Source of the DNA: a virus
UHGV virus genome: UHGV-0278671
DNA: 27,730 bases
Direction: 5' to 3' (one strand)
Under the pieces are notes generated by a model. That model searched no databases. It saw nothing but the letters and a program-made list of their open reading frames with translations, and was not told the origin of the DNA. The translations under genes were made by a program, and so were the position numbers. This document shows, piece after piece, positions 1-27,730 of this stretch (its first letter is position 1; every line of letters begins with the position of its first letter).

Positions 1-89
1 CTGTGTAGTACGCCGTCTGCGTTTCTCCGGTCCTAAGACATCAATCATCTGCTCTCCAATGACTAGTCTAAAAACTAGTATTAAGACTA

Positions 90-335
90 TCACTTATTTA
101 AGTGATATTGGTTGTCTGGAGATTCATGGGGCCAGTCTACTGCTCTATCAGTTATATCTTTCCCTTCATATACTTCACCTATATTGCTAATGCTGGCAGA
201 ACATCCAAGATGCTTGTATCTTATGATGTCCAACACGCAGTCACTACACAGCATCCGACCTGTTTCTTTAGAGTAAATGTATGTTTGATCAGCGTCTGAT
301 TCGCTAATGCCGCAGAAACAACATTCTTTACTCAT
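90..335 (-). CDS. Hypothetical zinc-ribbon protein (CCFCG...CSDC), sits where P22 has the antirepressor
   Basis: 81-aa ORF; ATG overlaps the stop of the upstream Arc-like ORF (ATGA), suggesting translational coupling; four Cys in a CxxC...CxxC arrangement. Function not recognised. Confidence 0.45.
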   Translation of the reverse strand: MSKECCFCGISESDADQTYIYSKETGRMLCSDCVLDIIRYKHLGCSASISNIGEVYEGKDITDRAVDWPHESPDNQYHLNK

Positions 336-4051: not shown

Positions 4052-5379
4052 TGTCCGTTCCTATAAATGAGTTTCTGACCAGTTTTAGGGTTCGTTGCCG
4101 TCGCGCCTTCTGATATCCCACTTGGCGCAGCTTTTGTCTGCCCATTACCACCTTGTGGTGTAGGCTGCGCTGTGACATCGTCAAATAGCTTGGCCTTCCT
4201 TCTCCCTAAGCTTTTTTTCAGCCCTTGAGGAATAGTATCTCCATACGTATCCAGATATTCGTCTACCTGCTGGTTAAACTGCTGCCCCATAGCGTTGGCG
4301 TTAATTTTGGCTGCGTTAACAATGTTATCCCTCGCTTCCTGTGACAAGCCATTCCCTGCATTAAGCTGGTCTACATATCCTTTTATCTGCCCCCATATGC
4401 CATCAGAGCGCATGACCTGAACCTGTTCACCTTCGCGAACAACTGACTGAGGGTCGAGAGACTTCATGTAATTAAAGATAATCCCAAGTTGGGCAGCGCC
4501 AGTATTTACCTTGCTAAGGGCTTGCAGAGAGTTTGCCGCCGCTCTGACAGAGTTATAATTTTTGCCAAAATTGGTAATGTCAGAATTTAATCCCTTAATT
4601 AAGTCTGCTGACGGCTTACCTTTTTGCCCCAGCTCCATTAGCTTCACCCCCATCTCATCTGAGTGCATTTGTGCCCGCTGAGCCCTGTCTAGTTGAGCGT
4701 TTTGGATATTTGCCCATCCTCTCACGTTCTCCATGTCAGCCTGACGGATGCTTTCATCCAATCGCCCTTTCTCTAGTTGGCGACCAACCATCTTATCCTG
4801 ATAATCCAGCATTTTATCAGGACCAACAGCCCCTAGCGTCATAGTAGTCAGCATGTGTGATAGCTGCTCTGGATTCTGGATACCTGTCTGAATCATCCAG
4901 TCAGCATTAGCACCAACGCGATTTAACCTGTCCTTGTTGTCAGTAATGAATTTACTGTAGGCTTCCGGTCCCTGAGAAAGAGCGACGTTAGCCCTCATGG
5001 CTAAATCGCCCATATCGTTGCGTTGCTGCTCATTAAGACCGGAAAACGCCTGTTGTGCCTGTGCAACAAACGCTGGATTTTCCTTGGCAAACTTAAATAG
5101 TCCCGATGGATCACCAGAAGCCCATGCATCAGCGTGAACCTTATTGAACGCACTAATCGCTTTCTGTTGCTGTTCCTGATTGTAAATATCAGCAACTCCA
5201 GCCAGACCACGTAACGCGGTCAGACCAACGTTATTTGCACCTGAGCGAGCCAACTCATTGTTTTCGCGGATCAGACCAAGCGTTGCGTTAATGTCGCTTG
5301 CCTTTGGCGCATTCTCATTTTGCGTACCGATGCCAGCCAGAAAACCACCAGAATTAATACCCTGTTGCCAAGTAGCCAT
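4036..5379 (-). CDS. Putative DNA injection/ejection protein (P22 gp20 position), 447 aa
   Basis: Follows the tail-needle gene; Gln/Asn/Ala-rich like internal ejection proteins; positional inference. Confidence 0.5.
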
Positions 5380-5389
5380 TGATTACCCC

Positions 5390-5764
5390 TTAAAACAGCG
5401 AACCAAGCAGACCAAGACCAGCACCGATAACCTCATCCAGCAAGTAATCAACATCGCTACGCAGTACGACTATCTTCCCTTCGGCAGTTGTTAACCTGAC
5501 CTCAAGTAGATTTATCGCTTTTGTGTTTGCGGTGATTCTTGCGTCGTGATCAGCCAGTTCGACATCCTGTTCATCGTTTTTCACCTGAGCATCGTAAGCG
5601 CCCTGACCAGCCTGATTTGCCTTCCCGGCAATTGCGCCGACATCAGCCCCCTGATTAATGACATACAGCAGGTAAGACTGGCTGAATATATTGCGTGGCA
5701 AAATTGAAGCATCAAGCCGCGTAGCCTGAACCACAACAGGTGTATTGAGATTCGAATCAGCCAT
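5390..5764 (-). CDS. Tail needle protein (P22 gp26-like), unusually short at 124 aa
   Basis: [73 protein letters not shown] matches the P22 gp26 N-terminus as remembered; start is the internal ATG at 5764 overlapping the gp10 stop. Confidence 0.6.
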
Positions 5765-6754
5765 TACTCGATCCTTATCTGGCAGCCTGACAGAGTGACA
5801 GGTGACTTCGTGATAACGCGCAATCTGAAGCCGACATTTTTCCTGATGCGCCCGACACGCTTCCACAAAACGCGCTTGTCGTAAACGAACGGTTCATTCT
5901 GCTCAATCATCTGCTCACGACCGTAATTGATGCCGTCAGTGGTTGCAGAGAGAAAAAGTCGGTCAGCATACTGCGCAACGCCAGTTGACGATTCAACTTC
6001 AAGGTCGAAAACTCTGGCGTTATCCGCTTTGAACAACGGAGTAAACAGCAGGTGTTCCTGCTGCTTGTCGTACTGGCTGCTGATATCGAACTGCAATTTC
6101 CCGGTAACAGATTCCAGCTTATCGCCGCACGTTATCTGATTGCCTTCGTAAATGAAGTCGATAGCGCGGTACACATCGTCATACAAGCCAGTTTTCAACA
6201 CACACCATTGCGGACCATTGGCGCTTGAAGATGCGTCGTACACGAGGACATGATGCGGAAGGTGGATAATCAGCAACTCATGAGCATCAAATCGCAGAGA
6301 CTCCATCACGCCATCAGCCAGTTCATCAGCAGTGTAGGAGCGGAGGATTTTCTCAATGCTCGCGCTGGCGATTGGTGACACCTGACCGGAGCCGATGATG
6401 TATACAGACGGCGCACCTGTTGCCGGATTGCTGATGAACGCATAAGAATCAGCGAATGGCGTTTTGCAGTACACGACCACTTCCGGCAACATCACCGACT
6501 TCACTTTCTCCTTTGTACAGCTTGCCGCCACACACGCGATAAACAGCACTCTGCGCCATGTTGTACTCAACTCCGCGCGATACGCCGTTCACATCAGAAC
6601 GTTTGGCAATGCCCGGGAATGAGCGAAGATATCCGCTGCTGTTCAGGATTTCTTTGGGTGTAGCCAACATATTCACTGGCAGATAGTCGATATAGTCGGC
6701 GTTTCTAAAGTCTTTGCCGACACCTTTCATAAGCGGAAGTTGCTGAATCGGCAT
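5764..6754 (-). pseudogene. P22 gp10-like tail accessory gene, disrupted by an internal deletion and frameshift
   Basis: 6449..6754 encodes a gp10-like N-terminus (MPIQQLPLMKGVGKDFRNADYIDYLPVNMLATPKE...); 5764..6570 encodes a gp10-like C-terminus from YCKTPFADSYAFISNPATGAPSVYIIGSG in another frame; junction near 6470, about 130 codons missing. Confidence 0.6.
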
Positions 6755-6763
6755 TTATTCACC

Positions 6764-7225
6764 TCACGTACTCGGATCATCTTTCTCGATGTAAAACCGA
6801 TTCCACGTAAACGCGCTTTTGTTACCACTACCGCGAGGCATATCATTTCGCCGCTCAAGTGGTGGTATTTTGGTTAAAGCGATACAGATTGTTTGATATG
6901 CACTGTCAGCAGCGGTAAGGAGAGCGTCTGACGGCTGAATGACGTTATCCATGCACACTTGCACAGCGAGTTTCAAAGCGACGCCATCATTTGCCCATGC
7001 AGGGATACCTGAATCATCGTCAGGTAACGGCATGATGCCGTTTTCTGTATCAGCAAACTGATACCCAAGCTCGATACCTTTCGCCTGCCATGCTGCCATC
7101 ATGTCTTCGAGGTCATTAATGGCATCTTCAATTGCCTGAGGGTCAGCATCTGTCAACGTGGCATTGGAATACAGCCCGGCTTTTCGTAAAGCCTTTAGAA
7201 CGAGATCACCCTTCGTTTTCGCCAT
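6764..7225 (-). CDS. Head completion/tail accessory protein (P22 gp4-like)
   Basis: MAKTKGDLVLKALRKAGLYSNATLTDADPQAIEDAINDLEDMMAAW resembles P22 gp4 as remembered. Confidence 0.7.
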   Translation of the reverse strand: MAKTKGDLVLKALRKAGLYSNATLTDADPQAIEDAINDLEDMMAAWQAKGIELGYQFADTENGIMPLPDDDSGIPAWANDGVALKLAVQVCMDNVIQPSDALLTAADSAYQTICIALTKIPPLERRNDMPRGSGNKSAFTWNRFYIEKDDPST

Positions 7226-7394
7226 CTTCTTCCGCCTTAGCCACTTTTTGCTTCGTTGCGGTTTCTTCAGGAGTTTTTACCCAACCTTTTTTCAGGTGAG
7301 ATTTAACTTCTTCGTCATCAACAATGATGTAATCGACAGCAAACTGACCACAGGTGATCATGTTGCCAGGCTTATAGAGCATTGTTCGTGCCAT
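7206..7394 (-). CDS. Small hypothetical protein (62 aa)
   Basis: GGGAG 6 nt before the internal ATG at 7394; ORF track extends to 7433. Confidence 0.35.
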   Translation of the reverse strand: MARTMLYKPGNMITCGQFAVDYIIVDDEEVKSHLKKGWVKTPEETATKQKVAKAEEDGENEG

Positions 7395-7406
7395 TATCTT
7401 CTCCCA

Positions 7407-7430
7407 ATAAAAATGGGGCCGAAGCCCCAC
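7407..7430 (-). terminator. Rho-independent terminator after the coat gene
   Basis: On the minus strand: GGGGC-UUCG-GCCCC hairpin followed by AUUUUUAUU, directly after the coat stop. Confidence 0.5.
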
Positions 7431-7435
7431 CAAAA

Positions 7436-8527
7436 TTACTGCCCGGCAATAACGATGCCCGTATATTCAGGAACAAGTACAGAGCAACCGTACAGGGTGG
7501 TGAAACGCGCAGTGGTTACACCTTTGATGTGGTCGAAGGCGTAAGACATGATCAGCGTAGCGCCCTGCTCGGTGGTTGCTGTCATTACCTGTGGACCCTG
7601 ACCAGTCGGGAACGCCAGCTTGCCGTACATCAGTTCAACAGAACCATCAGCCCAGAACAGGTTAGCCGGTGCGGCATTTTTGTTGAGAATGGTGATTGCT
7701 GCGCCACTTGCCGCATTAGCATCAACGTTTGCATATGGTCGGCTGGCGACATCCGCGTTGTCAGGCGGCAGAATTTTCGGTGAGATAGTTACTGTCGTTC
7801 CGCTTACTGCCAGAACGCGGAATACCTGCGGCTGCCCGGTGGTATCTTTGGTGATCTGGTGTACAGAATTCACCCCTGCGATGGTAAACGCATCGCCAAC
7901 CTGCAAACCTTCAGCAGATACCGTAATGGTCCCCTGTCGGTTATCCACTGGCATATCGTTAGCATCTTTGGCTTCAACCTTGTGCGCAGGTGCTGCTGCC
8001 AGCGTAATGGAAGTTGCTATACCCTTCGGAACACGACCAGAAATATCGGTCTTGTAGCTATCGAAGGACGCAACCGGAGGGATTTGCGCTTTTTCGTATG
8101 CTGTCAGGGTTGTGCCCTGAGCATAGGCACGGTGACCAAGCTCGCCAGCAAGGTCTTTGTAGTTGAAGGGGTTCCAGAAAGAGCGACGGTTGATACCCTG
8201 AGGTACACCAATCGCCGTCATGGTGGCATCAATACCTGCCGCACAGTTCCACAAATCACGGCCCTGTGAACCTGTGGTTGAGTCAGCCATCGTGATCACG
8301 TTAGTAGCACGCTGCGTAACCATGGAAATCAGGTCAGAGTCAATCTGTGCAGCAAGGCGCATACCTGCGGCGCGACCAGCTTCAGTTTTATGTTCCGGGT
8401 CACGCATTTCACGCGCATCCAGAGTGTACAGAATGTTTTTCGGCTCCTTGAACACAGAAGGAACAAGGCGCTGAACCAGTGCTGTTGGCGTTTTGCCGCT
8501 GAGGTCTAGGCCTTCCTCAATGTTCAT
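7436..8527 (-). CDS. P22-like major coat protein, probably missing its N-terminal ~50 residues
   Basis: FWNPFNYKDLAGELG, RPYANVDAN and LFWADGSVEL resemble P22 gp5 segments (from memory); the ORF begins where P22 coat residue ~55 aligns. Confidence 0.6.
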   Translation of the reverse strand: MNIEEGLDLSGKTPTALVQRLVPSVFKEPKNILYTLDAREMRDPEHKTEAGRAAGMRLAAQIDSDLISMVTQRATNVITMADSTTGSQGRDLWNCAAGIDATMTAIGVPQGINRRSFWNPFNYKDLAGELGHRAYAQGTTLTAYEKAQIPPVASFDSYKTDISGRVPKGIATSITLAAAPAHKVEAKDANDMPVDNRQGTITVSAEGLQVGDAFTIAGVNSVHQITKDTTGQPQVFRVLAVSGTTVTISPKILPPDNADVASRPYANVDANAASGAAITILNKNAAPANLFWADGSVELMYGKLAFPTGQGPQVMTATTEQGATLIMSYAFDHIKGVTTARFTTLYGCSVLVPEYTGIVIAGQ

Positions 8528-9864
8528 GTGGTAGCGACGTTGCTCGGCATGTTCTCAAGCTGCGACGCACCTGTAATTTGCTGAATAGCCGTTCCGGTGT
8601 ACTGCAATAGCCCAGCAAGAGCAGGAGGCATTTGTGTCGGAGGTGTCCAGCCAGCAACCTGAGCCTCTGAAATGACCGTTCCGTTTTTGTCCTTCTTGCT
8701 GGTCATGGGAAGAACTGCAGGTCTTTTCTTATTCCTCTCTGCCCAGTGATTCATTAATGGACCGGGAATGAAATCAACATCCACGATAGGAATGCCATCG
8801 CCGCCAGCCTGAGTAGCGTTATCTGCAATCATGGAAACCATCAGGTTCTCAAGACGCTGTGCATCCATCGCTTTTGCTGCGTGGCCTTCGATTCGCTCCT
8901 GATTATCAACAAATGAACGACGCCCATATACCGGGATGAGAGGAATATGTTCGCCCGGAATACGCTTCGGTTCTTCCAGCCATTCAGCGCCAGACAGAAG
9001 ACCGCAATAAACTCGGCGTTTCTTCACCGTTCGCTCGCCAATCAGTTCGAATGCACCATCGGTCAGCTCGTCGACAATATCTTTGATTTGCTCTTCATCA
9101 TAGATTGCCGTTTCTCCGCTGACAGGGTTACGCCATGCTGTGAGCTTTACCTTCTCTATGCGGACTTCGTAGTAGCGTCCAACATAGATGGCGTCAGGCG
9201 TTGACCAGTCATACTGAGTACCAGTGTCATCACGAGAAAGGCTTGCCGCGATGGAATCAGGGTATTCAGCCTCGAACGCTTTAGGCGTCATGGAGAACAT
9301 TTCCATAGCCCACATGGCATCAGAGCGGTCATATTGCTTGCTGTCCTGATCGAAGAAGACGCATGTCGCCGGGTCGTAAACAGGAAGAAGGCTGATGCGT
9401 CGCTGCTCGTTACTCGGATCCATTTCATCTTCGTAATCAGCGCACATGCGGAAACAACCGAATCCGCCCGTTACAGCATCATCAAATGCGTTATCACACG
9501 CTTCGCCACCGGATGTTTCCTGATAATCAGCGCGGAATTTGCCGTTCATCTTTTCGGCTAACGCTTCCGATGCCTTGTCATCCTTCGGCCTGAATTTAAC
9601 GCTGATGCGATTCTGTCGATACTCGCCAATGATGCGATCACATTCACGGGCAATCTTATTCAGTTCAAAGCGCGGGTAATGCTCAAACCTGCCTTCATCA
9701 AATGAGTAACCAGCGTTTGTGCTGCCTTCCCACTGTGCGCCGGACACCCGGACGAAACGTTGAGCCTCAATAATCTGCTTACGCATATCCTGCGTTGCTG
9801 ACCAGGCATTATCAAAGTTGCACAGCACCTTGCGATGCCAGTCAGTCATCTTTTTTTCTGCCAT
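8524..9864 (-). CDS. Portal protein (P22 gp1-like), apparently C-terminally truncated (446 aa versus ~700)
   Basis: KKRRVYCGLLSGAEWLEEPKRIPGEHIPLIPVYG matches the P22 portal IKRRRVY...AGEHIPIVPVFG region as remembered; the ORF ends where crown/barrel domains would follow and abuts the coat gene with no scaffold gene between. Confidence 0.6.
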   Translation of the reverse strand: MAEKKMTDWHRKVLCNFDNAWSATQDMRKQIIEAQRFVRVSGAQWEGSTNAGYSFDEGRFEHYPRFELNKIARECDRIIGEYRQNRISVKFRPKDDKASEALAEKMNGKFRADYQETSGGEACDNAFDDAVTGGFGCFRMCADYEDEMDPSNEQRRISLLPVYDPATCVFFDQDSKQYDRSDAMWAMEMFSMTPKAFEAEYPDSIAASLSRDDTGTQYDWSTPDAIYVGRYYEVRIEKVKLTAWRNPVSGETAIYDEEQIKDIVDELTDGAFELIGERTVKKRRVYCGLLSGAEWLEEPKRIPGEHIPLIPVYGRRSFVDNQERIEGHAAKAMDAQRLENLMVSMIADNATQAGGDGIPIVDVDFIPGPLMNHWAERNKKRPAVLPMTSKKDKNGTVISEAQVAGWTPPTQMPPALAGLLQYTGTAIQQITGASQLENMPSNVATT

Positions 9865-9865
9865 A

Positions 9866-10837
9866 TCAACCTACACCACAAGGAATTGAGTAACTGGAAT
9901 AGTCGGGTTGCGCAGCCGACTCCGGGCAATGCATACACATCATCAGCGCATCAGCCAGGTTAGGAGATGGAATACCGAGCTTCTGCTTCATTTCGACCTT
10001 AGTCATAAGCTCCAGCTTCCCGTTGTTATTGAATTTGCGCTGAATCTGCGTCAGTTCTGCAAACAGCTTCTCCAGCATCTTCTCGCCTATCGCTTCTTTG
10101 TCGAAGCTCAGCATGTCGTCTGGGTCTGCATACTCACCGTGGACAACCGCCCGATATGTCAGATACAGCCTGTCAGCCAGCGCGTAATAGAATTGCGCTC
10201 GCTTATTGCGGAACACATCGCCAATAGTGCGAACGTTGTCGCCCTGTACGACTTCATCGGCCCATGCTCCGGCCTGATATGGTGCATCTTCATCGAATGG
10301 CGATTCGCTACCCTTGAACATCGTGGCGGTGATTTTCTTGCCGGAGAACGCTTCCGTTGTCTGTCTGCGCAGCCCTGCACCGACACCATCGCCATCCCAC
10401 AGGTAATGGTCAGCGCCGTCTTCAATCGCCAGCGAAGTTGCCCAGTCAGCACCCTCGTTGATGTCCATCAGCAGACCTTCGGCAATGCGCTTAACTACCG
10501 AACCGTGACGCGATGCATAACCTTTAGCATCTGGCCCTGTATCTGACGGGTCATGTGCAGAGACAACAGCGCCTTTCGCTTTCCATCCGAGTTTCTTGTG
10601 CGCATCGGTTGCGGATTCAAGCCATTCACGTTTGATGATTGCCATATCACTTGCGCTTACTGGATCACCAAGCCAGATGTGACGATACAGTGTCGGATTT
10701 CTACGTTTACACTCTTCCATCTCCAGACGGAGAACTTCAGGAAAGTGCGGGTTCCCGGATCTACGCTCTCCATGAACTTCGCTATTACGCTGCTCATGCG
10801 CTTTTCCAGACGACCTGAATAAACCCATGCGCCCCAC
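9866..10837 (-). pseudogene. Terminase large subunit, C-terminal nuclease-domain fragment; ATPase domain absent
   Basis: Reading from about NPHFPEV... HIWLGDPV... AHDPSDTGPDAKGYA... SPNLADALMMCM looks like a terminase C-terminal domain; no Walker A region; directly upstream of portal. Confidence 0.6.
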
Positions 10838-10902
10838 AGTTCAAGCCAGCCATTCAGCCACTCATGCTGTTCTTTGGTGAGGTTTAGTTCTCTTATGCCC
10901 AC
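10657..10902 (-). pseudogene. Q: N-terminal fragment of a Q-type late antiterminator (WGAW family)
   Basis: First ~47 residues ([47 protein letters not shown]) resemble the Q82/QuuD-family N-terminus (WGAW motif); the remainder looks like read-through and overlaps the terminase fragment. Confidence 0.45.
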
Positions 10903-11564
10903 GCGCCTTCTCCCTGTACCTGAATCAATGTGAGGTTTCCGCAGAACACTGCGCCGGTATCGATATACATCTGGTTGGCAAACTTGAGTGGTTTCACTGC
11001 TGGCGTATGACCAAAGATGAACGTGTCCGCTCCTTTGATTTCTTTCACGATCCCGTCTTGTGAGTTGCTGATTCGTTCGCGGTTCCAGATTACCTGCTGA
11101 TGGTCAACTGGCTTTCCAAATTCGTATTCGTCACAAGGATAATCGGCGTGGCAGATGACATATTTTTTACCTTCGCTCACCAGTTCGATGATTAACGGAA
11201 GTTCATCTGCTTTATGGGAAAGAGCTTTAGCCAGAATTTCTTTGTCGTAATCGAGATTAAAGAACCAGCCACCGCCATTAAACAGCCAGTGATTGACGTT
11301 TCCACGCTCTGATAAGCCATCAATCATCATTTGCTCATGGTTTCCACGTACAGCTCGGAACCAGGGGAATGTGATTAATTCCAGACATTCGACGTTCTCT
11401 GTACCGCGATCGACCAAATCGCCAACCGAGATAAGCAGGTCTTTGTTGGTGTCGAATCCTATCGTCTCCAGTTTTTTCATCAGGTTCGTGTAGCATCCGT
11501 GCAGATCGCCAACTACCCAAATAGTTCGGTATTTGCTGCCATCAATTCTTTCGTAATAGCGCAT
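10893..11564 (-). CDS. ninI: Ser/Thr protein phosphatase (lambda PP / NinI)
   Basis: Near-identical to lambda phosphatase as remembered ([29 protein letters not shown]...GDLVDRG...GNHE...), ending GEGAWA; start is the internal ATG. Confidence 0.9.
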
Positions 11565-11748
11565 CTCTTTCACTCCATCCGCGATGAACCATGAGAACGT
11601 CGTTGACGATGGCGTGCATTTTCCCGTCTTTATCATCAACGTATTTTCTGACCGTACCGCGACTACATTTCAGTCTGCGTGCTACTTCTGTCTGGTTTCC
11701 GTATGCTTCAACGAGCATGTCTGGAATGGTTTTTACTGAGAACGTCAT
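11542..11748 (-). CDS. ninH: NinH
   Basis: 68 aa [37 protein letters not shown]... matches lambda NinH as remembered. Confidence 0.85.
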
Positions 11749-12356
11749 GCGGCCTCACTTCTGCTATTTCGCAGGTCTTTGAGTTTCTGTTGGTACTCTG
11801 CCTTGATCGCCTTGCACTCTTCGATAGTCCAGCGATGGCGGTTATGGTTTGATTCGATTTCGTCTACTGCTTCCTGCCCGATACGGCTAATCAGTTCGAC
11901 GCGATACGGAACGAGATTTCCGCTTTTGTGCTGGTTGCACACCACGCATTGCTTGTGAATATTGCGTTCATCAAATCGGAGTTGAGGTGCCGCAGCAGTT
12001 GTCCGGTAATGTCCGGCATCCCACTGAGCAGACGTGAGCGTTCCGCACGAGATACATGGTAAGTCGCGGTCTCTTTCTCTGATGAAGGCGTTTACGGCTT
12101 GTTGGGCTTGTTTAATCCAGTAACTGCGGGGCTTTAAGGCGAGTTTTCGAATCTTCAGTTTATCTTTCTGTTTCTGCTCCTCTCGTCGTAGTTTCTTCTC
12201 TGCTGCTTTTTCCGCTTTTTCGCGTTCTTTACTTCGTCGTTCGAGTGCTATCTTTGTTCCACACTCTGGAGAGCACCACCACTGATTAGCGAATGCAGGG
12301 TGAAACCATTCCCGACATTCACCGTTTTTACATCGTCTTCGTGCTGGTTTAGCCAT
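11745..12356 (-). CDS. ninG: NinG (Rap) recombination protein
   Basis: 203 aa [33 protein letters not shown]... matches lambda NinG as remembered. Confidence 0.9.
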
Positions 12357-12531
12357 CGTCTTCTTCCTCGTACATTGAGCTATTCGGATCGCTCATCAGT
12401 TCTGCGCAGCAGTGCTCACACACGTGAACTTCCAGCACATGCAGCTTCTGACCGCAGTTAGCGCACGTTAAAGCTCGCTCGACGCTTTCTTTCTGGTATT
12501 GAAGGGATTGGGATGGGCTAAGCATTAACAA
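12349..12531 (-). CDS. ninF: NinF
   Basis: [44 protein letters not shown] matches lambda NinF as remembered. Confidence 0.85.
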
Positions 12532-13465
12532 CCTCCATACAAACTTTCACGAATGCCGTTGCTACTTCTGCATTGATTGCGTTTCCATATCCAATAATTC
12601 GCTGATCTTGATTGCGCTTTGCCATTCTTCCCAGTGTGGACTTGCCTCGTCCCAAGCTTTTGGCAATGCCATTAACCATCGGGAATGAGCCGGGTCTAAC
12701 TGGACGATATTTTTCATCTCTACAGTAAAGCCAGTCTGCATCTCTCCAGAAGCCGTTAACCGGTAATGGGTACATAGCTTCACCGTCCCGGGAAGTTTCA
12801 AGCAGATTCTTGGGGTTCCGCTCTTGTCTTTTCCGCTGTAGCAATGCGTTGAACCTGTTGCATCGTTCGCTAAAGGAGTTTGCCATCCCGCTAGTCTCAC
12901 GCATCCAGATAGGTTCTGAATTCCCCTGCGTGTCTCTGGCTGAAAGTTGATATTTGTCGTTGGAGTAGGCCACCCAATACAATCGCTGCCTGATGTGCGG
13001 AGAACCGAAGCCCGCAGCGCAAATATCGGTACCTGCAGAGGTGTAGTTCGCACCTTCCAAGTCAGTTTGTACAAGGTCGAGCCAAGCGAGGCCGTCTGCG
13101 CTTGCAACCTGTTCGCCAATAACGATGCCAGGATTGCATTTTTCAATAAGCCAGAAGAATGCCGGCCATAAGTGCCGCTCGTCATCAACCCCTTTTCCTT
13201 TGCCTGCCGAGCTGAAAGGTTGGCATGGGCAACTTCCTGTCCAGATACTCTTGTTGTCTGGCCATCCTGCTTTTCTAAGTGCATAGCTCCAAACTCCGAT
13301 TCCTGCAAAAAAGTGGTGCTGGGTAAATCCTCGCAAATCACCTGGTGTGACATCTTCAATACTCCTTTCATCTACATACCGTCTGTCGCTGTTGTATGCA
13401 CTGCTCAGCGGCTTTTTCCACCCACGGTCTGATATTGCTGTACGGTGGGTTATTCCAGATTGCAC
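12518..13465 (-). CDS. DNA (cytosine-5)-methyltransferase-like gene, atypical; true start uncertain
   Basis: Motif I FFAGIG, motif IV GSCPCQPFSSAGK, ENV-like IVIGEQV, motif VIII PHIRQRLYWVAY, motif X-like GYGNAINAEVATAF. Only ~25 residues separate motifs I and IV; the first ~33 codons overlap the Dam fragment; a second long ORF (12562..13371) overlaps in another frame. Confidence 0.55.
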   Translation of the reverse strand: MQSGITHRTAISDRGWKKPLSSAYNSDRRYVDERSIEDVTPGDLRGFTQHHFFAGIGVWSYALRKAGWPDNKSIWTGSCPCQPFSSAGKGKGVDDERHLWPAFFWLIEKCNPGIVIGEQVASADGLAWLDLVQTDLEGANYTSAGTDICAAGFGSPHIRQRLYWVAYSNDKYQLSARDTQGNSEPIWMRETSGMANSFSERCNRFNALLQRKRQERNPKNLLETSRDGEAMYPLPVNGFWRDADWLYCRDEKYRPVRPGSFPMVNGIAKSLGRGKSTLGRMAKRNQDQRIIGYGNAINAEVATAFVKVCMEVVNA

Positions 13466-13652
13466 CGTGGCTTATCCACTCAGAATTTAGCGCGTCGTCG
13501 GCCTCAGTTAACCAGTGAGCGCACAGAGCATTTTTGTCGCTCGCTGCCGAATCCAGCCAGAATCCAAACTCAATATCCAGTGCATCAAAAAGCCAAAGCG
13601 GCGTTTGCCAGCAGTCCTTGTCGTGTGCTGGCGTATTTGATTTGATAGTCAT
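13368..13652 (-). pseudogene. Phage Dam-type N6-adenine methyltransferase, N-terminal fragment
   Basis: DKDCWQTPLWLFDALDIEFGFWLDSAAS...WNNPPYS matches the phage Dam family pattern; the ORF stops ~25 codons after NPPY; ATG overlaps the ninB stop (ATGA). Confidence 0.55.
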
Positions 13653-14089
13653 GCAGCCCGATCTCCCCATCTCGCTTTCCACTCCAGAGCCAGTCTCGCT
13701 TCGTCTGACCACTTAACGCCACGCTCTGTACCGAATGCCTGTATAAGCTCTAATAGCTCCGCAAATTCGCTTACACGCATCCTGCTGGTTGACTGGCCTA
13801 TTACCACAAAGCCATTCCCGGCAAGGTTAGGAACAACGTCCTGCTGCTTTAATGCTGCGGTAAACACACACTTCCAGCTTTCTGCATCCAGCCAACGCCC
13901 ATGCCATTCAACCTGACGAGAGACGTCACCAAGGCAAGCCCAAAGCTTTCGATTCTGGTCTAAGCTGCGGTTGCGCTCCTGAATGATCACTACGATTGGC
14001 TTGGTTGGGTCTGGAAGGATTTGCTGTACCGCGTGAATAGCGTTTTGCTGATGTGCCGGAGATCGAATTTCAAAGGTTAGTTTTTTCAT
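13649..14089 (-). CDS. ninB: NinB recombination protein
   Basis: 146 aa from the internal ATG (MKKLTFEIRSPAHQQNAIHAVQQILPDPTKPIVV...), near-identical to lambda NinB as remembered. Confidence 0.9.
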   Translation of the reverse strand: MKKLTFEIRSPAHQQNAIHAVQQILPDPTKPIVVIIQERNRSLDQNRKLWACLGDVSRQVEWHGRWLDAESWKCVFTAALKQQDVVPNLAGNGFVVIGQSTSRMRVSEFAELLELIQAFGTERGVKWSDEARLALEWKARWGDRAA

Positions 14090-23599: not shown

Positions 23600-23767
23600 A
23601 TGAGAGGACTTGCATACAATCCCGGCATTCTTCCGGCAGAAATGATTATTCGCCAACGCGTAAAGCCAATGCCATCGAGAGAGGAATTGCTTAAGAGAAA
23701 TAGTTTCGGTTCTGTTAATGACAACAAATATCTGAATGCAATGTGGCGCAAAGGAGGCAAGCAGTGA
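23600..23767 (+). CDS. Small hypothetical protein (55 aa)
   Basis: GAGGA 8 nt before ATG 23600; stop overlaps the next gene's GTG start. Confidence 0.3.
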
Positions 23768-24354
23768 GCAACATCGACAAACAGGCGCAGCGTAAAGCAA
23801 AGGTAATCACAAAGGAATTTGTTGAGGAACACCTTCACTACGATGGGAAGGATTTTTTCTGGAAGAAGCGCGAACCAAGTTCGTTTTCTGACAGCCGCAC
23901 ATGCAAGGTTTGGAATACTCGAATTGCAGGGAAGCGGGCCGGAGGAATCAGCGCTCAAGGTTATGTAGAAATTCAAATCAAAGGGAGTCGATATAAGGCT
24001 CATAGATTAGCGTGGTGTCTTGTTCATGGCGATATACCAACAGACATGCAGGTTGATCACATTAACCACGACCGAACTGATAACCGAATAGAGAATCTGC
24101 GCCTTGTTGATAATCAGGGAAACCAAAAGAACTCTTCGATACGAAAGGACAACATTGGAGGCTGCACAGGTGTTACCTGGAATCCTAGCCATAAAAGATG
24201 GATTGCCTACATACGCGAAAATGGTAAGCACAAGCACATTGGTAGCTTCATTAAATTCTCTGATGCTGTAAGAGCAAGAGAGGAAGCTCAGGCAAGGCTT
24301 GGATTCCACATGAATCACGGCGCCGCTGGCATTCGCATCAAAGGAGGTGAGTAA
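23764..24354 (+). CDS. HNH homing-endonuclease-like protein with C-terminal AP2-type DNA-binding domain
   Basis: [36 protein letters not shown] (HNH motif); C-terminal [27 protein letters not shown] (AP2-like); AAGGAGG 6 nt before GTG 23764. Confidence 0.65.
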
Positions 24355-26379: not shown

Positions 26380-26571
26380 ATGACCGATACCAGCCTGATT
26401 CCTGAGAAAGAAGTGATGAACAAGCTCGGTGTTTCATCACGTCAGACAATCTGGAACTATACCAAACGGCACGGATTTCCGAAGCCAGTCAGAACCCACC
26501 CCAAATCATACCTTCGTGAAGCTGTTGAGGGGTGGATTCTTAACGGTGGCGTTAATCAGAAATGCTCCTGA
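26380..26571 (+). CDS. alpA: AlpA-family regulator/excisionase
   Basis: 63 aa with HTH KEVMNKLGVSSRQTIWNYTKRHGFPKP typical of the AlpA/Xis family; GGAG before the ATG. Confidence 0.65.
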   Translation: MTDTSLIPEKEVMNKLGVSSRQTIWNYTKRHGFPKPVRTHPKSYLREAVEGWILNGGVNQKCS

Positions 26572-27730
26572 TGTGCCAGAACAATTTATCAGCGTGAAGC
26601 TCATACGCTTTGCGCTGAGCCTCTATCCAGTCGTGTTTATTGTATACGGACATTATCCCGCCAAGTTCATGACCGAGCATTCGCTCAGTAACATGAGGCT
26701 CGACATTCATCTCGGACAGACGTGTAACAAGCGTTCTTCTGAAATCGTGTGTTCGCCAGTAACCTAGATCCATCCCTCCCCTTATTCTATTTACGAATCG
26801 GTTGGCTGCAGCGATGCTGATCGGTTTGTTTATGTCTTCTCCAGGGAAAAGAACATCATTGTACGTTGTCATGGCCTTTTCGAGGAAAGGCTTAATTTGT
26901 TCGAAGATTGGACGGCGGATAACATTACCCATCTTGCTATGCTCTTTCGGTACGGTCCATACGTTTTCCAGCAGGTCAAATTCTGTCTTTTTTGCCAGCC
27001 TAAGCTCTGAGAGCCTCGCCCCCCACAGCATAAGCATCTGATGAAGTAGCTTATTTGACGTAGACGCACGGCTTCTTTCAATAGCAAGCCAAATCTTAGC
27101 CAGTTCGTGATACGACAGTACCCGATCCCCTACCTCAGCGCGGGAGCCGAAGTCCCTTGGTTGGATGCTCATAATTGCGCAACTATCTATCAACTGACGC
27201 CGCATGCACCAACTTATTGCTGATCTTAGTTGACTTAGCACCTGCCTTGCTCGGCGTGGATTATCTTTTTCTTCTTCGGTAAGCAGGTCAACCCATTGCT
27301 TAACCGTGATAGAAGATGCCGGACGATTAGGAAAGGCGTCATGCATGCGCTTCATAACCGTTGATCGGTAAAGTGCCTGGGTCTTTTCTCTGAGAGTTGT
27401 AGAGACGTAGTTGTCGAACCAGTAGTCGAGACACTGGGCGACCGTCATGGAGTTCTCCACCTTCTCTTCAAAATAAGTGCGTGGATCCGTTCCTGAGAAA
27501 TAGAGCTTTCGCAAGTCAGCAGTGATCTGTCTGGCATCCTTCAAAGACAGGGATGGGTATCGACCAAGCCCAAGTCGATTAGGCTTGCCATGCCAGCGAT
27601 AGCGGTACTGGAACTGGATGACCCCCTTCGGTGAAATTCGTACGCTGAGGCCATCGGCATCAGCCACTTCTTGTGGGCCCGAATATGGTTTACCATAAAT
27701 AGTACGCAGTTTTGTGTCGCTTATAGCCAT
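26552..27730 (-). CDS. int: Tyrosine-type site-specific integrase (P4-like arm-binding N-terminus)
   Basis: 392 aa; N-terminal LRTIYGKPYSGPQEVADADGLSVRISPKGVIQFQYRYRWHGK; C-terminal catalytic residues in HDFRRT...LGHE...YNKHDW; start codon is the last three bases of the window. Confidence 0.9.
   Translation of the reverse strand: MAISDTKLRTIYGKPYSGPQEVADADGLSVRISPKGVIQFQYRYRWHGKPNRLGLGRYPSLSLKDARQITADLRKLYFSGTDPRTYFEEKVENSMTVAQCLDYWFDNYVSTTLREKTQALYRSTVMKRMHDAFPNRPASSITVKQWVDLLTEEEKDNPRRARQVLSQLRSAISWCMRRQLIDSCAIMSIQPRDFGSRAEVGDRVLSYHELAKIWLAIERSRASTSNKLLHQMLMLWGARLSELRLAKKTEFDLLENVWTVPKEHSKMGNVIRRPIFEQIKPFLEKAMTTYNDVLFPGEDINKPISIAAANRFVNRIRGGMDLGYWRTHDFRRTLVTRLSEMNVEPHVTERMLGHELGGIMSVYNKHDWIEAQRKAYELHADKLFWHIRSISD

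Follow-up and report, generated by a model that had tools for sequence, protein, structure and literature searches.

A 2,026-bp deletion joins portal and coat gene remnants in a CUS-3-type element that is very probably a decaying prophage

The window described here is the whole 27,730-nucleotide stretch of UHGV virus genome UHGV-0278671. Between positions 7436 and 9864 it carries two adjoining minus-strand open reading frames (ORFs) that resemble the portal and the coat (major capsid) protein of phage P22 and its relatives, both of them incomplete. They are flanked by a remnant of the large terminase gene (terL) and by a gene for a gp4-like head-tail adaptor, which appears intact and has the length of its CUS-3 counterpart. 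At least five internal junctions, here named J1 to J5 along the window, interrupt this and the neighboring gene blocks. Table 1 lists the coordinates of the features discussed below. The plus-strand ORFs within positions 7436-9864 are short and antisense to conserved coding sequence, and a search for hidden RNA genes in the region gave no Rfam match at the gathering score.

Table 1. Remnant genes, junctions, and other features of the element, in window coordinates
Feature	Position	Strand	Description
IS2 left end (presumed), start of insC: MIDVLGPEKRRRRTTQ	1..139	-	abuts the arc/mnt region
Needle-gp7 fusion ORF (J1)	5390..5764; junction 5425-5429 (CGATA)	-	in-frame; 1,477 bp missing
gp10 pseudogene	5764..6754	-	two frames: codons 1-95 (ORF 6449..6754) and 238-472 (ORF 5764..6570)
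gp4-like head-tail adaptor gene	6764..7225	-	153 aa, apparently intact; P22_Tail-4, E 7e-41
Terminator-like GC hairpin and T run	7412..7431	-	directly after the coat stop codon; consensus scan only
Coat (major capsid) remnant	7436..8533	-	codons 53-417 of 417; listed ORF 7436..8527, 363 aa
Truncated portal pseudogene	8524..9864	-	446 aa: codons 1-445 of a 732-codon CUS-3-type portal, a new Thr, and TGA
Junction J3	8530..8533		4-bp microhomology GGTA (+) / TACC (-); 2,026 bp absent
Large terminase remnant	9866..10753 (ORF 9866..10837)	-	codons 177-471 of 471
Q antiterminator remnant	10657..10902	-	81 aa: codons 1-50 of 172 and 31 out-of-frame codons from terL
Dam / C5 cytosine methylase join	12518..13712	-	Dam codons 1-92 of 175, out of frame to C5 codons 29-314

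The portal ORF matches positions 2-395 of the 594-position Pfam profile P22_portal (PF16510; E 3.7e-110), and residues 6-442 of the 708-residue Sf6 gp3 align to it (E 3e-155). Residues 10-415 of P22 gp1 align to ORF residues 12-430, which places the end of the ORF at about gp1 residue 430. When compared with the CUS-3 portal, 425 of 445 residues are identical, and the fragment contains no internal stop codon or frameshift. In P22, the portal stem comprises residues 399-416, the wing residues 6-319 and 417-524, the crown residues 525-600, and the barrel residues 601-725 (PMC12005531), with the hammer loop at residues 456-505 (PMC13386823). Sequence matches to the P22-like portal body, namely the first wing segment, the stem, and the clip, are present in the ORF; the protomer is incomplete and lacks the region of P22 residues 417-725 with its second wing segment, crown, and C-terminal barrel. 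Given these domain limits, the break falls just past the second stem helix, about 95 residues short of the crown (PMC12005531). A preliminary description of this DNA had let the portal end about where the crown begins; the actual end lies earlier, and the second wing segment is lost as well. Past the junction, the portal frame reads ACA TGA and the product ends in ...PSNVATT, where the intact protein continues as ...PSNVATDTVDS.

The coat ORF covers positions 60-423 of the 423-position Pfam profile P22_CoatProtein (PF11651; E 2e-65). In comparisons with PDB entries, it corresponds to residues 54-416 of 416 of the CUS-3 coat structure 8SKG, and the CUS-3 I-domain (6MNT) is also matched. P22 coat residues 58-365 align from ORF residue 4 onwards, so that ORF residue 1 lies at about P22 residue 55, as had been estimated from the sequence beforehand. 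Against residues 55-417 of the CUS-3 coat protein, 339 of 363 positions are identical. The HK97-fold body, including the I-domain, is matched in the ORF; codons 1-52 are deleted, and with them the N-arm, which comprises about the first 50 residues. In P22, Asp14, Glu15, and Glu18 of this N-arm contact the scaffold hook (PMC12005531). At the junction the coat frame reads Tyr53-His54-Met55, and the annotated start at position 8527 is the internal Met55. The TGA that ends the portal frame happens to overlap that methionine codon, which ORF finders list as a coat "start". The ORFs, the Pfam ranges, and the structure alignments thus agree with the initial reading of a truncated 446-aa portal abutting a coat protein without its N-terminus.

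Intact relatives provide the frame of reference. A megablast search with positions 5300-11000 against phage records retrieved CUS-3 (CP000711), phiv205-1, Huey, Kapi1, and Sf101 at 93-97% identity, each match being split into 3-4 pieces that take up about 9.4 kb of phage genome per 5.5 kb of window; the same range of DNA identity to CUS-3 and its relatives holds over every retained segment. In these phages the genes run in the order terS, terL (471 aa), portal (732), scaffold (297), coat (417), small ORF, gp4, gp10, needle (gp26), gp14, gp7, gp20, and gp16, an order that the window shares from terL to gp16. A scaffold gene lies between portal and coat in all intact relatives compared. Unlike CUS-3, the window is without 2,026 bp at J3, 428 bp in gp10, 1,477 bp encoding gp7, gp14, and the needle C-terminus, and everything from Q through terL codon 176.

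The segment missing at J3 comprises portal codons 446-732, the gene for the 297-aa scaffold, and coat codons 1-52. Base-by-base alignment to CUS-3, Huey, and an E. coli O20:H12 prophage gave an identical break and 2,026 bp in each case, with GGTA common to both sides. The flanks are collinear with the three intact references at 94-98% identity; in the blastn comparison with the CUS-3 locus, window positions 6470-8533 correspond to locus positions 6076-8139, and positions 8530-10753 to 10162-12385. On the coding strand, the two copies of TACC lie at portal codons 444-445 and coat codons 52-53. The portal ends one codon past J3 because the join is out of frame. The preliminary description had taken the 4-bp overlap of the two ORFs (ATGA, positions 8524-8527) for the possible scar of a deletion of about 2 kb. 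The deletion and its approximate size are borne out by all three references, and comparison with intact P22-like genomes, proposed there as a check, yielded collinear flanks with the 2,026 bp missing between them. The position of the scar is not as supposed: the portal frame reads the ATGA from coat sequence that was there all along (His54-Met55-Asn56), and the scar lies 3-6 bases upstream. The scaffold gene, already noted as missing, is absent throughout the window according to blastn and tblastn searches with the missing segment and the CUS-3 scaffold. Likewise, neither program matched the 2,026-bp segment, the portal C-terminus, or the coat N-terminus to any other part of the window, and a translocation in place of a deletion was rejected on this ground. 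Repeat-driven collapse was rejected too, as long direct or inverted repeats are absent at or near the junctions. J3 is very probably the scar of a deletion in the course of ordinary prophage decay and not a new type of head module.

Surveys of genome collections point in the same direction. A query of positions 6472-10751 was compared with complete E. coli genomes, and those with at least 80% coverage were counted. There were 346 of them, and in every one the J3 flanks occur as two separate pieces. Among the top 15 listed, the pieces mostly span about 6,304 bp, that is, the 4,278 bp of the query plus 2,026, and the best record reaches 98.5% identity. The 8 phage records with the fullest coverage, each over most of the query, likewise have the J3 flanks as separate pieces. 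A 601-bp query centered on J3 found at least 80% coverage in none of 5,426 genomes, and a 37-base pattern across J3 had no exact match in genome_contigs, viral_contigs, or metagenome_contigs. In the collections searched, there was no record of the exact 446-aa or 363-aa ORF product and no sister genome with all or only some of the element's junctions; among complete E. coli genomes, none was found that spans J1, J2, J3, or J4. The arrangement that would speak against a deletion, an intact phage encoding a portal of about 450 aa and, right after it, a coat of about 360 aa, was looked for and was seen in neither set of matching records, which comprise 147 from phages and 976 E. coli genomes; the 346 genomes show the opposite.

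Two further E. coli genomes do carry damage in the same genes. The first is strain JKHS016 (NZ_CP147059), in which an independent deletion of 1,852 bp runs through the portal, scaffold, and coat genes, and whose annotation, as here, places a portal without its C-terminus beside a coat without its N-terminus. Unlike the window, JKHS016 keeps portal codons 1-562 and coat codons 113-417, its BLAST blocks share no bases at the joint, and the rest of its prophage looks intact. The second is strain AST20, one of the 15 records listed above, in which the region is matched in three pieces over 7,616 bp and an IS3-family transposase is annotated between two portal-protein features, an arrangement consistent with an insertion sequence in the portal gene.

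The other four junctions share the anatomy of J3 and affect the neighboring head, tail, and late genes and, at J5, two methylase genes. At J1, codons 1-113 of the tail-needle gene gp26 are joined to the last 12 codons of gp7; gp14 is lost entirely, gp7 for the most part, and the needle lacks its C-terminal half. J2, at positions 6470-6471 (TA), removes 428 bp inside gp10 and shifts the frame, and the two pieces match positions 1-92 and 234-469 of the Phage_stabilise profile. At J4 (positions 10752-10753, TT), Q breaks off between its codons 50 and 51 and continues out of frame at terL codon 177. About 4.7 kb, as estimated on L003, is missing there, with the remainder of Q, the late promoter region, the holin, endolysin, and Rz/Rz1 genes, and terS. 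The retained part of the large terminase is identical to residues 177-471 of the CUS-3 protein at 293 of 295 positions; the lost N-terminal part includes the GKS (Walker A-like) motif at CUS-3 residues 26-28. Since terS has no match in the window either, a complete pair of small and large terminase is lacking in this element. For J5, at positions 13377-13378 (TA), no single reference has Dam, NinE, and Dcm in one piece, and instead of a deletion the junction could represent illegitimate joining of DNA from two different phages. Three of the five junctions (J2, J3, and J4) are plainly out of frame.

The early region is lambdoid. It encodes a cI-like repressor, cII, O, a primase-helicase, NinB, NinG, a phosphatase, and N, and further a Rad52-like recombinase, SSB, an anti-RecBCD protein, an HNH endonuclease, and an integrase. 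The start codon of the integrase reaches the last base of the window (27730), and the window begins inside what we take to be IS2, so that no host flank is visible. Bases 1-139 were given this name for their resemblance to the insC N-terminus and the IS2 end sequence. From base 140 onwards, the window matches strain AST240 at 100% identity; in AST240 and relatives, the antirepressor and tailspike genes come next, both of them outside the content of the window. The closest integrase, at 98.8% DNA identity, adjoins sbcB in E. coli.

Taken together, J1 to J5 account for the loss or disruption of Q, the lysis genes, terS, terL, portal, scaffold, coat, gp10, gp26, gp14, and gp7. The element is very probably a defective prophage of the CUS-3/Sf101/Huey type (Lederbergvirus, P22-like) that is decaying by microhomology-mediated deletion, as judged from its sequence. 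A phage satellite (PICI or P4-like) was considered in view of the reduced set of head genes. Such a satellite would be a compact helper-hijacking element with a coherent, intact gene set of its own, and this reading was rejected, the segments being collinear with full-size P22-like phages at 94-100% identity; gene breaks in mid-domain and the out-of-frame junctions J2, J3, and J4 also speak against such a satellite or a compact module. The microhomologies at J1 to J5 measure 5, 2, 4, 2, and 2 bp, lengths that could each be off by one base because the references are 2-6% diverged. Their mean is 3.0 bp, whereas random blunt joins would be expected to give 0.67 bp; the probability of a sum of at least 15 over five junctions is about 1e-4. 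Such an excess is characteristic of illegitimate deletion mediated by microhomology. For J3, GGTA is present at both ends of the lost segment in CUS-3 and Huey, and one copy is kept at the joint. A single illegitimate recombination event would have joined the two copies of TACC on the coding strand and dropped the intervening 2,026 bp. More generally, the deletions at J1 to J5 may have occurred by replication slippage or microhomology-mediated end joining, presumably in a lysogen under relaxed or host-favored selection. Loss of Q, of the lysis genes, and of terminase would have put an end to host killing and DNA packaging and left the remaining virion genes free to decay.

As predicted from their sequences, the products cannot build a head, with a portal that is missing its second wing segment, crown, and barrel, a coat protein without the scaffold-binding N-arm, and no scaffold. 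Since Q, the late promoter region, terS, and the N-terminal part of TerL are gone, it is most likely that the head-gene remnants are not transcribed as a late operon and are of no use. The retained segments are free of stops and frameshifts, which means either that the deletions are recent or that deletion runs ahead of point mutation; both fit prophage decay. The deletion-prone decay of grounded prophages has been reviewed (PMC6379469).

A different origin of the junctions is that the source has an intact head module and that the 2,026 bp and the other segments were lost during assembly or sequence editing. J3 and both exact ORF products are missing from every collection searched, and five clean junctions fall within one 9-kb stretch of otherwise undamaged sequence, as such an artefact might produce. 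However, assemblers collapse at long repeats and not at microhomologies of 2-5 bp; none of the junctions has a longer repeat in the references, and the region contains no sizeable repeats. The five events are also independent in position and size, finished E. coli chromosomes show comparable natural deletions and an IS insertion, and the IS2 end at positions 1-139 suits a prophage that is genuinely decaying. An artefact is on balance quite unlikely.

Another reading is that the fragments have been domesticated, the truncated portal, the N-arm-less coat, or both being kept as a defense that interferes in a dominant-negative manner when superinfecting P22-like phages assemble their heads. The retained frames without stops or frameshifts would suit this role, as would the fact that the prophage still has its repressor, integrase, and recombination genes, but intact frames are equally expected from recent deletions. 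Moreover, nothing points to conservation, as J3 occurs in none of the collections searched. Most of Q has been deleted together with the late promoter region, and three of the four other junctions break neighboring genes out of frame. A consensus scan of the upstream coding strand found 2 weak promoter-like sites over 5.5 kb, fewer than the 5.4 that chance would give, and none was convincing. We consider domestication highly improbable; in its specific form, in which portal residues 1-445 and coat residues 55-417 would be expressed at a low level by read-through and serve as decoys against incoming CUS-3/P22-like phages, it is equally hard to credit. If the fragments did act as decoys, the deletion would represent an exaptation and not plain decay.

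Finally, the two open ORFs and their ATGA overlap, which is frequent in translationally coupled genes, might suggest a naturally compact head module that does without a separate scaffold and pairs a portal of about 450 aa with an immediately adjacent coat of about 360 aa, but its probability is vanishingly small, given that the flanks are 94-98% DNA-identical to those of phages with full genes and the break lies in mid-domain, that the ATGA already exists in native coat sequence, that the layout never appeared in the phage and E. coli records with matches, and that this element also has broken or missing genes for terminase, gp10, the needle, Q, and lysis.

The defective CUS-3-type prophage proposed here resembles the cryptic E. 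coli prophages DLP12, Rac, Qin, and e14, which have lost lysis and virion genes through internal deletions and insertion sequences and have kept repressor, integrase, and recombination genes (for the concept, see PMC6379469). Unlike in those prophages, decay is far less advanced here, with about 27 kb left; the genes still present match those of working phages at 94-100% identity and show no point-mutation damage. A decaying P22-like prophage is of a well-known kind; its specific deletion allele is absent from the collections searched.

For annotation, both ORFs should be labeled as pseudogene fragments of one deletion rather than as a short portal and a short coat protein, and the region is best classified as a defective prophage, unable to form particles or to lyse the cell. 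The same portal-scaffold-coat module has been inactivated independently in two other E. coli genomes, and current understanding is unchanged by the present case. With five short-microhomology junctions and an IS2 end in otherwise undamaged DNA, this element offers a clean small example of prophage decay.

At the Q-terminase junction (10752-10753), codon 177 of the large terminase gene is fused out of frame to codon 50/51 of the Q antiterminator gene. The window contains none of the lysis genes, and it also lacks the late promoter region and the small terminase gene. The deletion that joined the tail-needle gene to the gp7 gene happens to be in frame, and the resulting ORF encodes the N-terminal 113 residues of the tail needle followed by the C-terminal 12 residues of gp7, an ejection protein. 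At the methylase junction (13377-13378), the N-terminal half of a Dam methylase (codons 1-92) is connected to a C5 cytosine methylase gene that lacks its first 28 codons. The C5 frame is open upstream as far as a GTG at 13465, within Dam-derived sequence, and retains the FxGxG and PCQ motifs; on these sequence features, a functional Dcm with an altered N-terminus is thus conceivable.

Features of the window discussed here
Feature	Window coordinates	Strand	Remarks
Presumed IS2 copy	1-139	minus (insC)	left end and insC start; window begins inside element
Tail-needle/gp7 fusion ORF	5390-5764		125 aa; product of deletion at 5425-5429
Large-terminase remnant	9866-10753		from codon 177
Q antiterminator remnant	10657-10902		cut at codon 50/51
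Dam/C5 cytosine methylase join	12518-13712		junction 13377-13378
HNH endonuclease ORF	23743-24354	plus	HNH_3 match and weak AP2-like match
Integrase ORF	26552-27730	minus	start is exactly the final base of the window

At the left end, the arc/mnt immunity-I region adjoins an insertion that we take to be IS2, as judged from the insC N-terminus and the IS2 end sequence. The antirepressor and tailspike genes, which come next in relatives such as E. coli AST240, are absent from the window and may therefore have been displaced or deleted. At the right end, the position of the integrase start suggests that the window was trimmed at the predicted limit of a gene or provirus. The closest relative of this integrase is found in E. 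coli O20:H12 (98.8% DNA identity), where it adjoins sbcB. The HNH endonuclease ORF, probably an insertion of the homing-endonuclease type, lies in the early-left operon with the anti-RecBCD gene on one side and a DUF551 gene on the other.

Signs of damage to the same head genes are found in prophages of two E. coli strains. The otherwise intact-looking P22-like prophage of strain JKHS016 (NZ_CP147059; locus L006, 8207-10809) carries a different deletion, of 1,852 bp, extending from the portal C-terminus through the scaffold gene to the coat N-terminus, and this is an independent event in the same three genes as in the window. In a related prophage of strain AST20 (NZ_AP043617.1), the annotation places an IS3-family transposase between two features labelled 'portal protein'; this may represent another independent route to portal gene inactivation.
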